This document shows positions 724 through 10,643 of a DNA stretch of 11,924 bases, piece by piece. The stretch comes from an uncultured Candidatus Rokubacteria bacterium (lineage in GTDB: Bacteria > Methylomirabilota > Methylomirabilia > Rokubacteriales > CSP1-6): contig CAWBMV010000025.1 in assembly GCA_963789955.1 (NCBI GenBank), forward strand, positions 1-11,924, in the 5' to 3' direction. Numbering within the stretch: position 1 is the first letter of the stretch; each line of letters begins with the position of its first letter. The position numbers were made by a program, and so were the translations under genes. The notes beneath the pieces were generated by a model. That model had not been told where the DNA came from. It made no database searches and saw only the letters and a program-made list of their open reading frames with translations.

Positions 724-1995
724 GTGAAGCGAGCCCGAGCGCGCGCCACGAAACCGAAGGCCGGTCCGTTCGACGGCTACCGCCGCCGCGACGTTCCCCC
801 GCCTGATCCCGAGCTGACCGAGGTCGGTCCGGGCACGCCGTGCGGCGAGTATCTGCGCCGCTTCTGGCAGCCCGTCGCGTTCGCGCGCGAGCTCACGTCG
901 GCGCCGCTGAGAACCCGACTCCTCGGCGAGGACCTGGTGGTGTTCCGCGATCGCGGCGGGCGCGTCGGCGTGCTACACCTGCATTGCGCGCATCGCGGGA
1001 CGTCACTCGAGTTCGGGATTCCGCTCGAGCGCGGCATTCGCTGCTGCTATCACGGCTGGGTGTACGACGTCGATGGACGGTGTCTGGAGACGCCGGGAGA
1101 GCCGGCGGGCAGCCGTCTCCGGGAGCGCATCTGGCAGGGCGCATATCCGACGCACGAGTTCGCGGGCCTTGTCTTCGCATATCTCGGCCCGCCGGACCGG
1201 CGCCCCGCATTTCCCGTCTACGACAGCTACGATGTGGCCGGCCATCAGCTGATGCCCGCCGCGAAGTTCATGCTCCCGTGCAACTGGCTCCAGGTGAAGG
1301 ACAACAGCATGGACCCGGTACACACCGCGTTTTTACACGCGCTCAGCAGCGGCTACCAGTTCACGCCGGCGTTCGGCGCCGTGCCCGAGCTCGACTGGAA
1401 GCTGACCGATGCCGGCATGGTCTACCTGGCGACGCGCCGGGTCGGCGATCTCGTGTGGGTCCGCGTCTGCGACTACATGCCGCCGAACATTCATCAGTTC
1501 ACGCGGGAGACCGAGGAAGCCGACGAGCCGAAGCCGGCGAGCCGGCCGGTGATCATTCGCTGGGCGGTGCCGAACGACGACACGCACACGACGAACTTCG
1601 AGCTCGCGCAGGTGGATCCGGCCTGGGGACTCTCGCCGGAGCAGGTCGGCCGGCCCGGGTTCGGCCAGTCCGACGATCGTCCCTACGACGAGCGGCAGCG
1701 CTTTCCCGCCGACTTCGACGCGCAGTCGAGCCAGCGCACGATCGCGGTCCACGCGCTCGAGAATCTCGCGTCGACCGACCGCGGCGTGATCATGCTCCGG
1801 CGCATCGTGCGCGACGGCATCCGCGCGGTGGCCCGCGGCCGCGACCCCTTTGGGACGCGCTGGCCAGAGGGCAAGACCATCCCGACGTTCACGCAGGACA
1901 TCGTGCTGCGGGTCCCAGTCGCGGCGAGCGCGGAGGCCGATCGGAAGCTTCTGCGAGCGACGGGGCGGTCGGTGCTCGCGAACGGGCGGAGCTGA
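724..1995 (+). CDS. Rieske non-heme iron oxygenase alpha subunit (phthalate 4,5-dioxygenase/LigX-like aromatic oxygenase)
   Basis: N-terminal LTEVGPGTPCGEYLRRFWQPV, Rieske motif CAHRG...CCYHGW, mononuclear Fe motif NSMDPVHTAFLH, C-terminal ENLASTDRGVIMLRR. GTG start with purine-rich AGGAAGAAG upstream. Confidence 0.92.
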   Translation: MKRARARATKPKAGPFDGYRRRDVPPPDPELTEVGPGTPCGEYLRRFWQPVAFARELTSAPLRTRLLGEDLVVFRDRGGRVGVLHLHCAHRGTSLEFGIPLERGIRCCYHGWVYDVDGRCLETPGEPAGSRLRERIWQGAYPTHEFAGLVFAYLGPPDRRPAFPVYDSYDVAGHQLMPAAKFMLPCNWLQVKDNSMDPVHTAFLHALSSGYQFTPAFGAVPELDWKLTDAGMVYLATRRVGDLVWVRVCDYMPPNIHQFTRETEEADEPKPASRPVIIRWAVPNDDTHTTNFELAQVDPAWGLSPEQVGRPGFGQSDDRPYDERQRFPADFDAQSSQRTIAVHALENLASTDRGVIMLRRIVRDGIRAVARGRDPFGTRWPEGKTIPTFTQDIVLRVPVAASAEADRKLLRATGRSVLANGRS

Positions 1996-1996
1996 G

Positions 1997-3165
1997 CTAG
2001 AGCCGCGCCTCGTCGATCTTCAGGCCGAGCCAGTAGCGGCCGACCAGCTCGTAGTGCGCGAGTCGTCCCTGAAGATGCTGCGTGATGACGTGGATATCCT
2101 GGAAGTGGCGCTGGAGCAGATGATCCTCGTAGGCGGCCGTCGCGCCCGCGGCGTTGTACACGCTGTCGATGATCTGCGCGGCGAGCCGGATCCCGTGCGT
2201 CGTGGCCAGCCGAAGATTCGCGCGATGCTCGAGCGCTGAGCGCGTTCGTTCACGCTGGCCGCCCACGCCTCGCGGACCGCCTCGACGAGAAACGCGCGGC
2301 CGGAGCGTAGCGCGGCCTCGGCCTGCCCGACTGTCAGCTGGATCATCGGCTGCTCGCGCAGCAAGGTCGGCATCGCGCGTGGGGTCTTGGCGCCGGCCAG
2401 CTCGCCGAACGTCTCCAGGCACGTGCGCGCCATCCCGAACGCGACCGCGGCGTCGCCCGAGGCGAACAGCAAGCGTTCGCGGAATCCGGTAGAGCGGCGC
2501 GTCCTCGATCAGCGGCGCGGTTCCGAGAGCACGGTGCGCTCGGTCGGCACGAAGACGTCGTTGACCGCGAAGTGGTGCGTGCCCGTGCCGCGCATGCCGC
2601 GCGTGTGCCAGGTGTCGAGCAGCTCCGCCTCCGCGACCGGCACGAACATGTAGCGCGCCTCGGGCTGCGCCGTCTTCCATGCGGATCTGACCGTTCTCGG
2701 TGATCTGCGCGTGCGCGGCGACCCACGATGCGTGCCGGCAGCCGGTGCTGAACCCCTGGCCGCCGGGCCGGTGACGCGATAGCCGCCCGGCACCACGATC
2801 GCCTTGGCGGTCGCCGCCGGGGTGTTCGCCACGACGGCGCGCGGCACGTCGACCCAGATCGTGCGGGCGACCGCGCGCGGCATGCGCGCGGCGTAGGTGC
2901 CGAAGATCGCGCCCTGGTTCAGGCACCAGCCGGTGCTCGCGTCGGCCTTGCCGATCTCTTCGATGACCTGGATGTAGGTCGGCAGATCGATCTCGCCGCC
3001 GCCGATCGCGCGCGGGATCGCCATATGGAACAGGCCGGCGTCGGCCATCGCCTCGAAGAGCGGGCGCGGCAGCTCGCGCTGCTTCTCGATCTCGTCCGCG
3101 GCGGAGCGGATCTGGGGAACGAGCTTGCGGGCGGCGTCGAGGGGCGAGCGGCCGTCGGTGTCCAG
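1997..3165 (-). CDS. Acyl-CoA dehydrogenase-fold flavin-dependent monooxygenase (HsaA-like hydroxylase); frameshifted as assembled
   Basis: A full-length protein can be stitched from three frames: PLDAARKLVPQIRSAADEIEKQRELP...ADASTGW...GFSTGCRHASW...DTWHTRGMRGTGTHHFAVNDVFVP...LFASGDAAVAFGMAR...LQRHFQDIHVITQH. Frame switches fall near 2762, 2668, 2522, 2471 and 2240. The start is uncertain because there is no in-frame ATG/GTG/TTG above 3048; CTG at 3165 is used here. Confidence 0.8.
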
Positions 3166-3181
3166 GGTGGGAGCTCGCGGG

Positions 3182-4070
3182 CTACGAGCCGGCCGCGACG
3201 AGCGCGGGCTCGTCGATGTCGAGAGTCGTCACGCGGCGAAGCTCACGGCGATACTTCGTGTCGTCGAATGGCCGCGCCCGGTGCATCGTCGCGCGGTTGT
3301 CCCAGATCACGAGATCGCCGACACGCCAGGCGTGACGATAGACGAACTCTCGCTGGGTCGCGTGCTCCGTCAGATCGCGCAGCAGGAGACGCCCCTCGGG
3401 CAGCGGCCAGTCGAGAATCCGTGTCTGGTGCGACGCCAGGTAGAGCGAACGGCGCGAGCGAGCGCGGGATCGTGCGCACCAGCGGGTGCACCGCGCCCTT
3501 CAGCTGATCCTGCTCGCTCTGGGAGAACTCGAACCCGAGGATCTGGCGTGAGTGGGCGATCGAATGGTGCGTGCGAAGCCCTTCGATCAGCGCCTTCGTC
3601 TCCGCCGGCAGCGTGTCGTAGGCGGCGCGCATATCGGCGAACTCGGTGTCGGCCGCGACCGGCGGCACCACGCGCGCGTGCAGCATCGAGTAGCGCCCCG
3701 CCGGATCCTTGAACGACGCGTCGGTGTGCCAGAGCCGATTGCCGAGCGTGTAGTGGCGCCGGCGATCGTCGGCCTTCATGAGCTCGCCTTCGGCGTCGAC
3801 ATTCGAGATGTCCGACAGCGCCTCGTTGCCGAAGCGATTCTTCGCGATCACGCGGCTGCCGGTGCCCTCGTGCAGCTTGCCGTCCAGACGCTGGGCAAAC
3901 GCGAGCTGCTCAGCGTCCTCGAACGGCTGGTCGCGGAAGACGAGCACGGCATACTTGTCCATGCCGGCGCGGATCTCGGCGAGGATCTCCTCGTCGTGGA
4001 CCGCGCGGAGCTCGATCGGGCTGGCTTCACCGACGAACACTGGGTGGAGGTTCCGGAATGTCAGCGCCAT
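3182..4070 (-). CDS. TauD/TfdA family Fe(II)/alpha-ketoglutarate-dependent dioxygenase; one frameshift near 3458
   Basis: ATG 4070 (MALTFRNLHPVFVGE). HxD motif GNRLWHTDASF, then DTEFADMRAAYD and HPLVRT. After a +1 shift the frame reads RRSLYLASH...WRVGDLVIWDNRATMHRARPFDD...RRELRRVT to TAG at 3184-3182. Confidence 0.88.
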
Positions 4071-4079
4071 AATCTCAAG

Positions 4080-4109
4080 AGGGTAGGACGACCCGGGCCG
4101 GTCCGTCAA
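4080..4109 (-). promoter_or_regulatory. Possible sigma70 promoter for the TauD/TfdA gene
   Basis: Minus strand TTGACG-N18-TACCCT, 9 nt before the ATG, with no SD. Confidence 0.35.
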
Positions 4110-4116
4110 GCGATTG

Positions 4117-4135
4117 CCCGGCGGAATTCGCCGGG
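4117..4135. terminator. GC-rich hairpin downstream of vapC (possible terminator or pause site)
   Basis: CCCGGCG-GAATT-CGCCGGG is a perfect 7-bp stem about 30 nt after the vapC stop. There is no U-tract. Confidence 0.35.
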
Positions 4136-4164
4136 AAGGCGTGAGCTTGCGTAGGGTTGGGCGT

Positions 4165-4644
4165 TCAGGCGGGGTAGACGGCGAGACCGCGGGCGCGGGC
4201 CGCCGCAGCCAGGCGAGTGTCGAATGTCGCCAACGACGCGGCACGCCCCGACGTCGCGAGCGCCAGATGAAGGGCGTCGGCGGCACGCAGCGAGGTGCCC
4301 TCGAGCGCCAGCAGGAAGTGCTCCGCTCGGCGGTGCACATCGCGGGTCAGCTCGACGCGATGATAGACGCCCTCGTCGAGACGCTGGAGCACCGCGTGCT
4401 GAAGCCGCCGCGCCGCCTCTCGGGTGAACGACCTCTGGTGCAGGCGTCGCGCGACCGCCGAGACGATCTCGGTGACGGCCAGATCGGACACGAGCACATC
4501 ATCCCGGCCCTCTACGACCTCGTTGAATTCGTCGCTTCCTGGTTCGGGCAGGTAGAGCTTCAGCAGGGCGCTGGTATCGCAGTAGAGGGGGCCGGGGAGC
4601 TTCGCGCGATAGGCGGCCCTTCGCTCGGCGAGCCGTGCGGGCGT
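4165..4644 (-). CDS. vapC: PIN-domain (VapC family) toxin
   Basis: The frame upstream of the ORF-track start (4497) encodes the PIN N-terminus LYCDTSALLKLYLPEPGS. Later motifs are TEIVSA, LRAADALHLALA and LATFDTRLAAAA. The only SD-preceded candidate start I found is ACG at 4644-4642. Confidence 0.85.
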   Translation of the reverse strand, partial: TPARLAERRAAYRAKLPGPLYCDTSALLKLYLPEPGSDEFNEVVEGRDDVLVSDLAVTEIVSAVARRLHQRSFTREAARRLQHAVLQRLDEGVYHRVELTRDVHRRAEHFLLALEGTSLRAADALHLALATSGRAASLATFDTRLAAAARARGLAVYPA

Positions 4645-4651
4645 GCGTCTC

Positions 4652-4888
4652 CTAGAGGCGATCTGCGCGGTCCCGGGCGACAGTGGCGGACAGCGGAGGG
4701 TCGAGGACCGGCATCTTGCGGCGGAACGACGCCAGGTTCGGCACGGTTTTTCCGCGCGGGCGATCCGGCGGCACCAGCTTGGCCACGGGCCTCCCGCGCT
4801 CCGTGATCAGGACCTCGCGACCCTTGCGAACTTCGTCGAGAAGAACGGAGAGATTCTGGCGGGCCTCGCGTACTCCGGCGGTGCGCAC
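4652..4888 (-). CDS. Phd/YefM family antitoxin (prevent-host-death) of a type II TA module
   Basis: MRTAGVREARQNLSVLLDEVRKGREVLITERGRPVAKLVP is a typical Phd/YefM N-terminus. 78 aa, directly upstream of the PIN toxin. Confidence 0.92.
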   Translation of the reverse strand: MRTAGVREARQNLSVLLDEVRKGREVLITERGRPVAKLVPPDRPRGKTVPNLASFRRKMPVLDPPLSATVARDRADRL

Positions 4889-5010: not shown

Positions 5011-7041
5011 CTACGCCGTCAACACGCCCGTATGGATGGCGCGGACTTCCACCTCGGAGAGGTCGGTGCCGGCGAGCATGCGCATGGCGATTGGCGCGAG
5101 CTCGGCCACTGCGCCACCACCGGCAGGTGACGCCACGGGGCCGACCACCCAGGCTCGCAGCGGCGCGCCGCGCGGGTTCACGAATTCGACGACCGCACCG
5201 GCGGTCACGCCGAGCCGCGTCGCGGCCTCTGTGCTCAGCCGAACTTCGCGTCCACTCTGAGTGTCGAGACCGGCTCCGGCGATCACTCGGACGCGCAGTC
5301 GGGTCGCGCGCAGCGACGAGCGCCTCGCCGCGGTGGCAGCGGCATCGGGCGCGCCCTGGCGTAGCACGACCCCGTAGATCGCCTCGGCGGCCGCCGGCGT
5401 GACGTAGCCCTCGCCCACGTCCGCGGCGACACGCTCCGGATCGCGTTCAAGGGGGTCGCCGAAGCCACCGCCACCGCTCGACTCCATCAGCAGCACGTCA
5501 CCAAGCTCGAGCGGAAATCCGCTCACTTTGCCGGGCAGCGGGGACGATTGGACACGCCGACCGTTTCGGCGGACCCAGAATCGATTGGTCGCGCCGGCCG
5601 CGCCACCCGAAACGCCGAACGGCGGCAGCACCGACTTCTCGGCGAGCACCGACAGCTGAGTGCCGGACGCCTGGATCCGCACCTCGCGCGTGAGACCGAG
5701 CCCGCCGCGCCAGCGTCCGGGGCCGCCCGAATCCTCGCGCAGCGCGGTGCGCTCGATGCGGACGGGATAGAGCTGCTCGACGGCCTCGATGGGCTGGAGC
5801 GTCGTCATGTCGCTCTCGGTCCACGTGCGCACGGTGTTGCTGCCGTCGCCGCCGTCGAAGCCGCCGGTGCCGCCGGCCGGGTACTCGTAGAAGATGAACG
5901 TCTCGTTCGTCTGTGGATGAGGCCCCCCGACGTAGCAGTGATTGCCGCCGCCCTTGAGGTCGCCCGCGATCTTGCCGTCGAGCGCCTGGGCGAGGGCGCC
6001 CATCACGGCCGACTCCACGCAGTACTTCACCTCGACCATACCGCCGCACGGCGCGGGCGGGTTGGCGTTCACGATCGTGCCCGGCGGCGTGATCACCGTG
6101 AGCGGCCGGAAGGCGCCCGAGTTCACATCGGAGCCGGGATCGAGGAACGACTTGATGATCGTGAAGGCGCCGGTCGGCGCCATCGCAGGGCCGACGTTGG
6201 TCGGCCCGAGCGTCTGGGGCGAGGTGCCGGCGAGATCCACCGTGATCGTGTCGCCGGCGACGGTGACTCGGGCACGCACCGTGAGCGGCTCGAGCCGCTC
6301 GGTGCCGGCCTCCAGATGCGCCTCGTAGACGTATTCGCCGGCGCGAAGCCCGCGGATGGCGCGGCGCATCCGGCCCTCGGCGCGATCCATGAGCTCCGCC
6401 ACGGCGTCGCGGATCGTCACGGCGCCGTAGCGCGCGACCAGCTCTTCGACCCGCTCGGCGGCCTTCCGGCAGGTCCCGAGCATCGCCTGAAAGTCGCCGC
6501 GCCGCTCGCGGGGGCCGCGCATGTTGCTGAAGATCAGATCGAGCGCGGCCTCGTTCGGCCGGCCGCGATCGACGATCCTGATCGGGGGGATGCGCACGCC
6601 TTCCTGGAAGATCTCGGTCGCGCGGCCCGAGAGGCTGCCCGGGCTCATCCCGCCCACGTCACCCCAGTGCGCGCGCACGACGGGGAACACGAACATGTCA
6701 CCGTCCGCGGCGAAGAGCGGATAGATCATGGCGACGTCGTTGAGATGGGTGCCGCCCGTGTACGGCTCGTTGTGCAGGAAGATGTCGCCGGGGTGGATGT
6801 CGTCGCCGAACTTCTCCCGCATGGCCTTCATCGACCAGCTGACCGGCACGATGTGGAGCGGGTGATCCTGGCCCTTGGACATGGCGACGATCTGAGCCTG
6901 CCCGTCCATGAGCACGCAGGAGAAGTCTTCGCCCTCGTAGAGGATCGACGAGAACGCGGTGCGCACCAGGGTCACGCGCATCTCGCGCACGATCGACACG
7001 AACGCCTCGCGCAGCACTTCGAGGGTGATGGGATCGATCAC
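5011..7041 (-). CDS. Hydantoinase B/oxoprolinase family protein with a C-terminal extension
   Basis: MIDPITLEV...EMRVTLVRTAFSSILYEGEDFSC, NEPYTGGTHLND, RAHWGDVGG..PGS, EIFQEG, DSGGPGRWRGGLG, GGGGFGDPLERDP. The GTG start overlaps the A-subunit stop (GTGA at 7041-7038). Confidence 0.93.
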   Translation of the reverse strand: MIDPITLEVLREAFVSIVREMRVTLVRTAFSSILYEGEDFSCVLMDGQAQIVAMSKGQDHPLHIVPVSWSMKAMREKFGDDIHPGDIFLHNEPYTGGTHLNDVAMIYPLFAADGDMFVFPVVRAHWGDVGGMSPGSLSGRATEIFQEGVRIPPIRIVDRGRPNEAALDLIFSNMRGPRERRGDFQAMLGTCRKAAERVEELVARYGAVTIRDAVAELMDRAEGRMRRAIRGLRAGEYVYEAHLEAGTERLEPLTVRARVTVAGDTITVDLAGTSPQTLGPTNVGPAMAPTGAFTIIKSFLDPGSDVNSGAFRPLTVITPPGTIVNANPPAPCGGMVEVKYCVESAVMGALAQALDGKIAGDLKGGGNHCYVGGPHPQTNETFIFYEYPAGGTGGFDGGDGSNTVRTWTESDMTTLQPIEAVEQLYPVRIERTALREDSGGPGRWRGGLGLTREVRIQASGTQLSVLAEKSVLPPFGVSGGAAGATNRFWVRRNGRRVQSSPLPGKVSGFPLELGDVLLMESSGGGGFGDPLERDPERVAADVGEGYVTPAAAEAIYGVVLRQGAPDAAATAARRSSLRATRLRVRVIAGAGLDTQSGREVRLSTEAATRLGVTAGAVVEFVNPRGAPLRAWVVGPVASPAGGGAVAELAPIAMRMLAGTDLSEVEVRAIHTGVLTA

Positions 7042-9086
7042 GGCTGGGCCTCTCGGCCGAAGCGCAGATTGCCGTATTCATCGACCTCACCGCGCCACCC
7101 TGGGGGAACGATCGTCGTCGCGCCGAACTCCTCGACGATGGCGGGGCCGCGGATGTTAGACCGCTCGGGAAGCCGCTCTCGCTCCCACACCGGACAGTTG
7201 TGCGGCGCTCCCTCGAACCACACCGGACGGCGCTCGACCAGCGCGCCGTCGAGCGAGGTTCCCGCGCTGCGGTGGCGTTCACTCGACGGCCTGGGGACGA
7301 GGCCGTAGGCTGTCAGTCGCGCGTTGACGAGCTCGATCGTGGCGCCCGGGCTCGAGTGCCCGTACGCGGCGAGGTGCTGGCGGTGGAACGCGCCCTCGAT
7401 CGTGTCGAGCGCCAGCGCGTTCACGCCCAAGTCGCCGACGGCCACGTTCAGCTCGAACGCCTGGCCCTGATAGCGCAGATCGAGCGAGCGGACGAGACGC
7501 TGCTCCTGCGCGGTGAAGCCTTCGAGGCTGAGCTGGTGCCGCGCGGAGCCCTCCATCTCGCCGAACAGCTCGACCGCGACCACGAGACGATCGCGCAGCG
7601 GGCCCACGCGTGTCCTGACGTCGTCGTGCTTGATCTGCGAGGCGAGGAGACCGAGCGCCGAGAAATTCCCGGGGTGGCGGGGCACGAGCACGCGCGGAAC
7701 GCCGATCTCCTGGGCCAGGGCGAGCGCGTGCATGGGCCCGGCGCCACCGAACGCGATCAGGGTGAAGTCTCGAGGATCATGCCCGCGCTGGATCGAGATC
7801 TCGCGGATCGCCGAGGTCATCCGCGCCACCGCGATCGTGACGACGCCTTCGGCAAGCGCCTCGACGGTCATCGACCGACCGAGTCGCCCGCCAAGATCGG
7901 CGAGGGCGCGACGCGCACCGGCCGCGTCGATGGCGATGCTGCCGCCCAGACGCTTCGTCGTCCCGATGCGGCCGAGCACGACGTTGGCGTCGGTCACGGT
8001 CGGCTCCGTGCCGCCGAGGCCGTACGCGACCGGGCCCGGCGAGGCACCGGCGCTACGCGGCCCCACCTGGAGGCTTCCGTCCACGTCGAGCCACGCGATC
8101 GAGCCGCCGCCCGCGCCGACGCTGTGCATGTCGAGCTGGGGGACCTTGACGGGAAAGGCGCCGAGCATGCCATCGGACGTCGTCAGCGGCGCCAGATCGC
8201 GCACGAGACACACGTCGGTCGAGGTGCCGCCCATGTCGTACGTAATGAAGTCGCGCACCCCGGCGACCTCGCCCGCGAAGCACGCCTGGCTCACGCCGCC
8301 GGCCGGGCCCGAGAAGATCGTCTTGATGGGCAGGCGCCGCGCCGTCTCCGTCGTCATCATGCCGCCGCTCGAGGCCACGGTGAGGACGCCGTGGGCATAA
8401 CCGGCGGACCGCAAACGCTCCTCGAGCCCGGCCAGATAGCCATCCATGATCGGCTGCAGGTACGCGTTGAGCACGGTCGTGGAGAAGCGTTCGAACTCAC
8501 GATACTCGGCGACGACATCGGCGGAGCACGACACGGGCAGTCTCGGGTAGCGCCCCTTCGCGAGATCGGCGACCGCACGCTCGTGGGCCGGATTCAGGTA
8601 CGCGTGGAGAAGACAGACGGCGAGTGCCGCGGCGCCCGAGGCCGCCGCGGCATCGAGCGCGCGCTCGACACTGGCCGGATCGAGCTCCACCAGCACGGCG
8701 CCGTCGGCCGCCAGGCGCTCGACGATCTCGAAGCGGTGCTTTCGCTCGACGACCGGCTTGGGGCGCACGAATGTCGGCACGAAGAGCGCCGGGATATTCC
8801 GCTTGGTGCGGCCGATCTCGATCAGGTCGCGAAAGCCGGCCGTCGTCAGAATCGCCACCCGCGCGCCGCGCCGCTCGAGCACCGCGTTGGTCCCGACGGT
8901 CGTGCCGTGGACGAGCCGGCGCACGTCACGCCCCGCGATGCCCAGCGCCTGGAGCCCCGAGAGAACGGCCGCGCTCTCGTCGCGCGGTTTCGACGGCACC
9001 TTGGTGACGACGACCTTACCGGTCGCTTCGTCGACCGCGGTCAGATCGGTGAACGTGCCGCCGACGTCGATCCCGACGATGAACAT
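7038..9086 (-). CDS. Hydantoinase A/oxoprolinase family protein (ATP-binding subunit)
   Basis: Likely start ATG 9086 (MFIVGIDVGGTFTD). Motifs HGTTVGTNAVLER, EYREFERFSTTVLNAY, SGPAGGV, DMGGTSTDV, GAGGGSIA, PTVTDAN, FGGAGPMHA. Confidence 0.94.
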   Translation of the reverse strand: MFIVGIDVGGTFTDLTAVDEATGKVVVTKVPSKPRDESAAVLSGLQALGIAGRDVRRLVHGTTVGTNAVLERRGARVAILTTAGFRDLIEIGRTKRNIPALFVPTFVRPKPVVERKHRFEIVERLAADGAVLVELDPASVERALDAAAASGAAALAVCLLHAYLNPAHERAVADLAKGRYPRLPVSCSADVVAEYREFERFSTTVLNAYLQPIMDGYLAGLEERLRSAGYAHGVLTVASSGGMMTTETARRLPIKTIFSGPAGGVSQACFAGEVAGVRDFITYDMGGTSTDVCLVRDLAPLTTSDGMLGAFPVKVPQLDMHSVGAGGGSIAWLDVDGSLQVGPRSAGASPGPVAYGLGGTEPTVTDANVVLGRIGTTKRLGGSIAIDAAGARRALADLGGRLGRSMTVEALAEGVVTIAVARMTSAIREISIQRGHDPRDFTLIAFGGAGPMHALALAQEIGVPRVLVPRHPGNFSALGLLASQIKHDDVRTRVGPLRDRLVVAVELFGEMEGSARHQLSLEGFTAQEQRLVRSLDLRYQGQAFELNVAVGDLGVNALALDTIEGAFHRQHLAAYGHSSPGATIELVNARLTAYGLVPRPSSERHRSAGTSLDGALVERRPVWFEGAPHNCPVWERERLPERSNIRGPAIVEEFGATTIVPPGWRGEVDEYGNLRFGREAQP

Positions 9087-9381
9087 GCGCGAGGCGTCTA
9101 CGAGAGTCTTTCGGGGTGGGAGCGTGCAAGTTCCATGGCGGCAGATCGTAACAGATCGTGACAACCTCGTGCGATGCGGTGAGGTCGTGTCCCGGTTCTG
9201 GTGGAAAAGAGAAATGGCGCATTCTTCCAGTTGGTGAAGTGCACGATCTGCCGGCCGCCCCGGCAGGCGTGGTGAGCGGACAGATCAAGTTGCGGCGAAT
9301 CGACGGGTGGCAGAAGATCGCTGTGGTGTTGCGTCAGCGCACGGAGGTGGCCGCATGATGCGAGGTGTGCTGTAGCGGTGC

Positions 9382-9440
9382 TTGTCAGTGTCGGCGTGAA
9401 CACCTATGCTTGCGACCGCAACGGCGAGAATAGGTCGCAA
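9382..9440 (+). promoter_or_regulatory. sigma70 promoter plus inverted repeat upstream of the peroxiredoxin operon
   Basis: TTGTCA (9382-9387)-N17-TATGCT (9405-9410). Inverted repeat TTGCGACC (9410-9417)-N15-GGTCGCAA (9433-9440). SD GGAGG at 9449-9453. Confidence 0.6.
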
Positions 9441-9458
9441 ACGGGGCTGGAGGCACAC

Positions 9459-10023
9459 ATGAGGGTCCTCAGCAGGCGAATGCTCAGTTGGGTTCTGTTG
9501 GGAACGGCACTGGCGGTCTCCTCGGTCCTCGGCGCTTCACGGCCGGCCGGGGCGGTGGAGGTGGGCGAGCCGGCGCCCCCCTTCACGCTGGCGAGCACCA
9601 CCGGTGGCGATATCTCCCTCAATGACTTTCGGGGTAAGAAGTGGGTCCTCCTCGAGTTCTACGGCGTTGACTTCGCTCCGACGTGAGCGGCGAACCTGTT
9701 GGCCAGGAAGGCCGACTACAAGCGATTCGAAGCCCTGGGGGTCCAGAACCTCGGTATCAGCGCCAACTTGACCTTCTCACAGCAGACGTTCGCCGAATCT
9801 TTGAAACTGCCGTACCCGCTGCTCAGCGACTTTCCCGACCGGAAGGTGATCCGCGCTTACGGGGTCCTCAACGAGAAGACAATGGCCGCGATTCGGGCCT
9901 TCTTTCTCATCGACCCGCAAGGCAACGATCCGCAAGAAGTGGATTATCGAGAACGACGAGACGACGGTTGTTTATGGCGACACCCTCCTGCCTGGTATCC
10001 AAGAGGCGATCGGCAAGCGCTAA
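9459..10023 (+). CDS. Exported peroxiredoxin (AhpC/TSA, BCP/AhpE-like) selenoprotein; Sec76 at TGA 9684-9686; +1 frameshift near 9924
   Basis: SD plus ATG 9459 and a signal peptide ending PAGA. Then VGEPAPPFTL...ISLNDFRGKKWVLLEFYGVDFAPT-TGA-AANLLARKADYKRFEALGVQNLGIS...LPYPLLSD...RAYGVL...RAFFLIDPQG, all in one frame across the TGA. The +1 frame supplies TIRKKWIIENDETTVVYGDTLLPGIQEAIGKR-TAA (10021-10023). Confidence 0.85.
9698..9716 (+). promoter_or_regulatory. Candidate bacterial SECIS element
   Basis: GTTGGCC-AGGAA-GGCCGAC forms a 7-bp stem (one G-U pair) with a 5-nt loop whose second base is G. 18 nt separate the UGA from the loop. Confidence 0.65.
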
Positions 10024-10049
10024 CTGTGATGCCGGGCCCCCCAGCGGCG

Positions 10050-10643
10050 ATGAGAGCATCGTCGCCCGCCTGGCTCGCCGCCCGGGCAGGGCTGCTCGCG
10101 TTAGGCTTGCTCGTCGCCGCCCTGGACGATGCCGCGAGCGCCGACCAGGCGACGCTGGCGTCTCTTCTCAAGACCCTCGACCTCTATAGCTATACCTCCC
10201 GCACGGCGATTCCCCAGTTCAGTGGCAGCACGCTCGACGCCCGGCAACTGTCAATGACGGAGCACCGGGGGACGGTCATTGTTCTGAACTTCTGGGCGAG
10301 CTGGTGTCTCGAGTGTCGCGCAGAGATGCCCGTGCTGGAGCGGCTCCAGCCCGAGTTCTCGTCGCGGGGACTCGCCATCATCGGGGTCAATGCCCGCGAG
10401 AGCAAGGAAGCAGTCGGGCGCTACGCCAAGGAGCTGGGCCTGACGTTCCCACTCGTGCTCGATCCGGACGGCAAGATCAATGCCCTGTACGGCGTCATCG
10501 CGCTTCCGACGACGTTCGTCGTCGGGCGGGATGGGCGCGCCGTCGCCTTTGCCATCGGACCTCGCCAGTGGGAGAGTGCGCCGGCCCGTGCGCTCATCGA
10601 AGCACTGCTAGCCGAGCCGGCCCCCGGTTCGGCCGCCCAATGA
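10050..10643 (+). CDS. TlpA/ResA family exported thioredoxin-like disulfide reductase
   Basis: Signal or anchor segment (GLLALGLLVAALDDAASA), then VIVLNFWASWCLECRAEMP, LTFPLVLD, LYGVIALPTTFVVGRDG and GPRQW. Alternative start ATG 10029. Confidence 0.88.
   Translation: MRASSPAWLAARAGLLALGLLVAALDDAASADQATLASLLKTLDLYSYTSRTAIPQFSGSTLDARQLSMTEHRGTVIVLNFWASWCLECRAEMPVLERLQPEFSSRGLAIIGVNARESKEAVGRYAKELGLTFPLVLDPDGKINALYGVIALPTTFVVGRDGRAVAFAIGPRQWESAPARALIEALLAEPAPGSAAQ

Follow-up and report, generated by a model that had tools for sequence, protein, structure and literature searches.

The window analyzed here, the entire 11,924-nt contig C25 of a Rokubacteria bin (6.8 Mb, 38 contigs, 87% complete, 5% contaminated), carries a gene for a protein of peroxiredoxin (Prx) fold in which an in-frame UGA occupies the position of the peroxidatic cysteine. 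From the comparative sequence evidence below, this codon is almost certainly read as selenocysteine (U76). UGA recoding is standard, and enzymes of this class have been described before; the distinguishing trait of this widespread branch is its lack of the catalytic Pro and Thr of peroxiredoxins. We consider it fairly probable that the gene, once intact, encodes an exported enzyme with a single selenocysteine that reduces hydroperoxide and is recycled by a TlpA-type protein.

Reading frame of the Prx gene

On the forward strand, the frame that starts with the ATG at 9459 encodes a hydrophobic leader and the N-terminal half of a peroxiredoxin up to FYGVDFAPT, where it meets the TGA as codon 76. 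The same frame continues 3′ of this codon with AANLLARK...LGIS...LPYPLLSD...AYGV...RAFFLID, and the read-through product matches the Pfam model AhpC-TSA (PF00578) over residues 35-156 with 113.5 bits (E = 7.6e-33). The features of the gene and of the remainder of the window are collected in Table 1. The promoter match upstream was found once, versus 0.3 expected in shuffled sequence.

Table 1. Features of the window (positions are those of the whole stretch)
Feature	Position	Strand	Details
Open frame from contig start	1-411	+	no Pfam match; Trp/Arg/His-rich, Pro-rich tail
LigXa/VanA-like Rieske oxygenase	724-1995	+	left part of the window
TauD dioxygenase and acyl-CoA-dehydrogenase-like flavoprotein	1997-4340	-	appear split over several frames, probably by more indel errors
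PIN-domain gene	4165-4497	-	type II toxin-antitoxin pair with the next, amid catabolic genes
Phd/YefM antitoxin	4652-4888	-	see previous line
Hydantoinase/oxoprolinase A and B genes	5011-9164	-	diverge from the Prx operon, gap 294 nt
Sigma-70-like promoter match, weak	9382..9410	+	TTGTCA-17-TATGCT; consensus match only
Shine-Dalgarno-like GGAGG	9447..9451	+	7 nt 5′ of ATG 9459; from sequence
Prx-fold selenoprotein gene	9459..10023	+	187 aa (75 + U + 111); one surplus base as assembled
Predicted signal peptide	9459..9554	+	basic N-region, hydrophobic core, A-G-A end
Predicted Sec-UGA, codon 76	9684..9686	+	peroxidatic Cys column; F67-Y-G69-V-D-F-A73-P-T-U76
Candidate bacterial SECIS hairpin	9698..9716	+	7-bp stem 9698-9704/9710-9716, loop AGGAA 9705-9709
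Arg146, conserved Prx catalytic Arg	9894..9896	+	aligns with Arg of solved BCPs
Surplus base, probable assembly indel	9926..9927	+	shifts last 31 codons, fakes a Prx-TlpA fusion
TlpA/ResA-like thiol-disulfide oxidoreductase	10029..10643	+	hydrophobic N-terminus, FWASWCLEC
ABC substrate-binding protein, PF04392	10640..11620	+	Pfam 169 bits; start overlaps TlpA stop (ATGA)

With 565 nt, the gene amounts to 188 codons plus one base. Its TAA (10021-10023) is out of frame with the ATG, the last 31 codons (IRKKWII...IGKR) are found in the +1 frame only, and as assembled the Prx frame stays open from 9687 to 10643, running into the downstream TlpA gene. The surplus base is left out, at full covering depth in each case, by 6/6 covering contigs from runs X1, X9 and X15, which represent related strains and are not shown to be the source sample. 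DNA alignment likewise places a 1-nt gap at this point in 5/5 orthologues, and the part 3′ of the Sec site is exactly 111 codons long for 91 of the 99 loci compared. A protein of 187 aa (75 + 1 + 111) is obtained only without the base, and from these alignments the frameshift is probably an assembly error; the selD gene of the same assembly is similarly broken, so indel errors do occur in it. The length of about 187 aa given by the original prediction thus stands for the corrected gene and fails for the gene as assembled. At the UGA itself, the covering contigs show no difference among the rows listed, which is consistent with TGA and says no more than that. RNA contigs of run X15 span 9541-9691 and 9811-9962, although transcription is not shown thereby.

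The UGA codon in homologous genes

Matches to the gene were found in 19 of 61 related genomes, and TGA stands at the site in all 24 matches that cover it (a 25th falls short of the site). Of 99 homologous loci, 93 have TGA at this codon, 5 have TGC and 1 has TGT, with no others, although these counts are not independent because the loci are close kin and the searches overlap. The set comprises 19 of 23 named-genome loci and the best 80 of 522 metagenome matches; the four named-genome loci left out encode ordinary Cys proteins of 34-39% identity. The closest named relatives belong to Rokuibacteriota/Methylomirabilota (81-87% identity), and further relatives occur in bins of Binatia/delta proteobacteria and of Chloroflexota. 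Two UGA-Prx copies per locus were observed at L027/L045 (G035 C192) and at L057; the latter was tallied on its second copy and has TGA in both. Together with the AhpC-TSA match, this distribution bears out the placement of the TGA in the catalytic Cys slot of a peroxiredoxin, and close relatives proved to have mostly TGA and otherwise Cys.

The true stop of the Prx gene is itself TGA in 93 of 98 closed loci, and 5 of 7 checked genes of the window end in TGA. Since TGA serves as an ordinary stop, a general codon reassignment is ruled out, and reading through the internal TGA needs a local signal.

In a 57-protein tree computed with the column masked, the bootstrap of which is not fully settled, DNA-verified Cys forms nest within Sec clades twice: once as L058 and once as a five-member clade. 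The clade has Ser at the Thr column, and L058 keeps Val. At L058 (3133-3165) TGT replaces TGA, selA is retained, and the hairpin has a broken 3′ arm (-4.8 kcal/mol), which together likely reflect a recent Sec-to-Cys reversion. The family offers a clean example of a SECIS hairpin decaying after UGA has changed to a Cys codon.

Protein databases represent the family differently. Among the best 120 of 564 matches, the residue at the site is C in 38, W in 29, S in 1 and G in 1, while 48 entries are fragments that begin just 3′ of the site, in agreement with the earlier expectation that annotation would split the gene; 3 others lack the motif. All 29 W entries share one source; the likeliest origin of the W and G records is gene calling under alternative codes, which would make them artefacts.

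A conserved hairpin follows the UGA

The candidate SECIS hairpin begins 12 nt after the UGA, with 18 nt between UGA and loop, and has a predicted energy of -11.9 kcal/mol. The bSECIS model described in PMC13188914 allows a loop of 3-9 nt, a stem of 4-16 bp, a spacing of 16-37 nt and an MFE of at most -7.5, with a G within the first two loop positions, and the hairpin falls within every one of these constraints. Its stability relative to shuffled sequences was not significant (z = -0.13, -1.26 at best, 0.10 and 0.39); for a SECIS element, the comparative test alone was counted.

Comparison across loci gives a strong signal. Over 55 distinct UGA contexts, Ala is encoded by GCC in 55/55 and Arg by AGG in 54/55. 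AGG accounts for 3.5% of Arg codons in the long ORFs of the genome and for 56 of 418 elsewhere in the Prx genes. The four inner pairs of the stem are intact in 54 of 55 UGA contexts versus none of six Cys contexts, which derive from two lineages, and mean hairpin energies are -11.5 and -6.8, respectively. Two-sided compensatory changes are few, with a single one at pair 17:29.

The genome encodes the selenocysteine machinery

The genes selA (500 bits), selB (359 bits) and a tRNA-Sec(UCA) (69.8 bits) lie within 5 kb of one another on contig C1, and selD (304 bits) is located on C6; all score above cut-off, and all are on contigs other than the 11.9-kb Prx contig. As assembled, selD is frameshifted about 50 codons in, probably by another assembly indel. 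It also has a Sec-type TGA of its own (SCAG-U-ASK; L011:1349-1650) with a hairpin. Furthermore, selA scores above cut-off in 18/18 relatives that have the Prx gene and in 5/5 further genomes behind the named loci, the genome with the Cys version among them. Among the tRNAs found, the tRNA-Sec beside selAB alone carries the anticodon UCA, and that of tRNA-Trp is CCA. The reading of U76 as selenocysteine was predicted earlier on the strength of the motif; the presence of all four sel genes, the restriction of homologues to TGA or Cys, and the conserved SECIS-type hairpin each turned out in its favor.

The host genome is selenoprotein-rich: in 12 of its 28 Prx/TlpA-fold matches the redox position is occupied by an in-frame TGA. 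The eleven other genes (C17:148716, C1:621314, C34:1122659, C34:114245, C32:1880, C1:604142, C15:256114, C34:120416, C12:289688, C34:569224 and C22:106407) each have a 3′ hairpin of -9.7 to -14.3 kcal/mol. One of them, C34:114245, is a paralogue of the window gene with nearly the same hairpin. Two more, C1:604142 and C32:1880, are near-identical UGA-Prx copies with near-identical flanks, reflecting either a recent duplication or strain contamination of the bin. Given these genes and the verified Sec-Prx family (PMC13188914), the original prediction overrated how surprising the selenoprotein is; it also overlooked the frameshift, the missing Pro and Thr, the predicted signal peptide and TlpA as a conserved partner.

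A Prx fold without the canonical Pro and Thr

An AlphaFold model of the orthologue L049 (U entered as C, 26-sequence alignment) has a pLDDT of 94.4 and matches the solved structures of Bcp4 (3hjp; TM 0.90) and of the one-Cys peroxiredoxin AhpE (5c04; TM 0.89). In this model, residue 45 is predicted to lie in helix 43-54, in keeping with a Cys/Sec at the start of helix 2. The top solved structures in profile searches were archaeal BCPs and AhpE (E = 6e-33 to 7e-25). Arg146 is invariant in the alignment, and the Arg motif is present in 84 of 86 distinct proteins.

The active-site motif, however, is GxxxAxxU (FYGxxFAxxU) and not PxxxTxxU, with G69 in the Pro column and A73 in the Thr column; the FYPxxFTxxC motif invoked at first does not describe this protein. 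In 86 distinct proteins, the Pro column (7 residues before Sec) holds G in 82, A in 3, S in 1 and P in none. Thr or Ser three residues before Sec/Cys is found in 15 of 80 distinct UGA proteins (absent from 65) and in 5 of 6 Cys proteins, and Val stands at this column in 14 of 93 UGA loci. A set of 153 mostly distant domains has Cys in 141, Thr/Ser in 122 and Pro in 96. Measured against the definition of Prx as PxxxT/SxxC/U plus Arg, the protein has the fold but not the Pro or the Thr/Ser, and so does not belong to the PxxxT/SxxU group. No NCBIfam Prx model was reached at its cut-off (68.7-76.8 bits versus 140-270 for the best models); for peroxi_PrxU (NF040737, cut-off 270) the window protein scores 68.7 bits and an intact orthologue 76.8, and the best E-value among 26 is 1e-23. 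A second Cys is absent from 96/96 mature proteins, and with it the resolving Cys of the PprX type.

What the missing Thr would cost can be gauged from known enzymes. In yeast Tsa1, as reported in PMC5024103, the rate constant is 4.7e7 per M per s and falls to 3.8e4 with T44A, leaving an enzyme about 1000-fold slower but still active, whereas T44V nearly abolishes activity, with a rate constant that could not be measured. DFT calculations on AhpE described in PMC7231847 favor Sec over Cys by 6 kcal/mol, with the Thr hydroxyl as proton acceptor. We speculate that the more reactive selenium may tolerate the change of Pro to Gly and of Thr to mostly Ala. That these proteins form an undescribed exported one-Sec Prx subfamily able, thanks to selenium, to do without the ‘absolutely conserved’ Pro and Thr would go further still, and we regard it as tentative and rather unlikely. 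A strict rule by which Sec compensates for lost Thr found no support: the Cys form of L058 keeps Val, the Ser-bearing Cys loci make up one clade, and 21 of the 38 database proteins with C (best 120 of 564) lack Thr/Ser, although U may be written as C in these entries.

Probable export and the conserved TlpA neighbor

The leader reaches a Kyte-Doolittle hydropathy maximum of 2.2 (13-mer). By a heuristic applied with no control, a hydrophobic segment of at least 1.6 is present in 87/87 homologues with enough upstream DNA and an AxA-like end in 83/87. Judging from these N-termini, the protein is very probably exported via its signal peptide. Twin-arginine export is not claimed; RRxFG-like N-termini occur in several orthologues, and the RR is missing in others.

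Of 72 loci with at least 700 nt of downstream sequence, 69 have a TlpA-type gene next after the Prx gene. Its CxxC was found in 76 of 82 loci and not in the remaining 6, and UGA replaces it in none. By analogy with the known envelope system discussed below, this TlpA-type protein is the probable reductant of the Prx. In 52 of 58 loci the PF04392 substrate-binding gene is no more than 1.6 kb downstream, and both neighbors are present in 50 of 58. The genome has one DsbD_TM match, C6:158896; a DsbD/CcdA-type gene and TlpA-like genes lie within 8 kb of selD on C6.

A proposed mechanism and its alternatives

These observations provide the basis for a model. SelB would bind the hairpin downstream of UGA76 and bring Sec-tRNA(UCA), so that U occupies the peroxidatic position, and the signal peptide would send the protein to the envelope. 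There the selenolate, set by Arg146, would attack a hydroperoxide to yield selenenic acid. Without a second Cys the Sec-Prx cannot resolve itself; the adjoining TlpA-type CxxC protein would reduce the selenenic acid and would in turn receive electrons from a membrane protein of the DsbD/CcdA type that the genome encodes. The steps of peroxide reduction and direct recycling through TlpA are modeled on ScsB-TlpA-PprX of Caulobacter, and we hold them with moderate confidence.

The main rival accepts a true exported selenoprotein and denies that it is a peroxidase: the Prx scaffold, used without the peroxide-binding Thr, would act as a redox relay, a sensor or a reductase of another substrate, for instance one that restores oxidised proteins of the envelope or acts on the ligand of the substrate-binding protein encoded alongside. 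The family-wide loss of Pro and Thr/Ser, the tolerance of Val, scores below every NCBIfam Prx cut-off and the frequent PF04392 neighbor all lend it weight, as does Caulobacter PrxL, which lacks conserved Prx residues and for which PMC3322552 reports no detectable peroxidase activity. The catalytic Arg has nonetheless been kept in nearly all distinct proteins, fold and best sequence matches are those of the BCP/PrxQ and AhpE peroxidases, the T44A form of Tsa1 is still active (PMC5024103), and TlpA is a known reductant of an envelope Prx (PMC3322552). On balance we judge a role other than peroxide reduction to be unlikely.

Two further readings concern the gene itself. Were the surplus base genuine in the source strain, the locus would either encode Prx and TlpA as one fused protein of about 394 aa or be a decaying gene; the long open frame into TlpA, and the origin of the covering contigs in related strains, speak for this. 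A genuine fusion was rejected, since the base is missing from every covering contig and every orthologue aligned and the 111-codon length is held by most loci; in addition, the shifted stretch still codes for the conserved C-terminus and selD is broken in a similar way, so we consider a real extra base very improbable. Even less credible is a TGA that acts as a true stop, leaving a pseudogene or two polypeptides, or that an altered code translates as Trp, Gly or Cys. The fragments and the W and G entries in the databases would suit such readings, but in 99 loci no codons other than TGA and those for Cys stand in the column, TGA ends genes here, the Prx gene included, the tRNAs with anticodons UCA and CCA are those for Sec and Trp, and the hairpin decays with Cys. 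An altered genetic code was rejected on the TGA stops and the sole UCA tRNA found.

Relation to known systems

Selenocysteine-containing peroxiredoxins are known in bacteria, as the original prediction had it: Sec-Prx (PF00578, TxxU) is listed as one of 119 selenoprotein families and as experimentally verified in Table 1 of PMC13188914, which cites PrxU of Eubacterium acidaminophilum (Sohling et al. 2001) and reports a Methylomirabilota bin with 63 selenoprotein genes. The window protein shares with Sec-Prx/PrxU the Prx fold, Sec at the peroxidatic column, a UGA with an in-frame SECIS element and the catalytic Arg. It differs from PrxU in having GxxxAxxU for PxxxTxxU, a predicted signal peptide and no second Cys, and in being nearer to BCP/PrxQ and AhpE. 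In Caulobacter crescentus, the exported PprX receives its electrons from ScsB by way of TlpA (Cho et al. 2012, PMC3322552). Common to both systems are a BCP/PrxQ-type Prx, exported in Caulobacter and very probably here, a TlpA-type reductant, here a probable one paired from gene order alone, and a DsbD-family protein in the genome; PprX, as described there, has Cys, the full PXXXTXXC and a resolving Cys, whereas the window protein has Sec and neither Pro/Thr nor a resolving Cys. The best profile and fold matches, AhpE of Mycobacterium tuberculosis (1xxu, 5c04) and archaeal BCPs (2ywn, 3hjp, 2cx3), are about 30% identical to the window protein and differ in having Cys, in keeping Pro and Thr/Ser and in lacking a signal peptide. 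A literature search, with subscription papers and supplements outside its scope, found no paper on an exported GxxxAxxU branch, and a term search of the deep-Sep main text (PMC12013277) gave no match.

Database entries for this redox gene family of soil bacteria are mostly inactive fragments or show Trp at the catalytic site, so that annotation understates the envelope antioxidant capacity of Rokubacteria/Methylomirabilota. The family also constitutes a Prx branch in which two canonical active-site residues are missing and of which Sec and Cys versions, 70-85% identical, occur naturally; this makes the catalytic benefit of selenium testable. If Pro and Thr are indeed dispensable here, the branch would offer a natural experiment on the reasons for using selenium in enzymes: since Sec-to-Cys reversions arose independently, with Ser or Val at the Thr column, U/C by A/S/V variants could be compared directly, and TlpA would be seen to reduce a selenenic acid without a resolving Cys.
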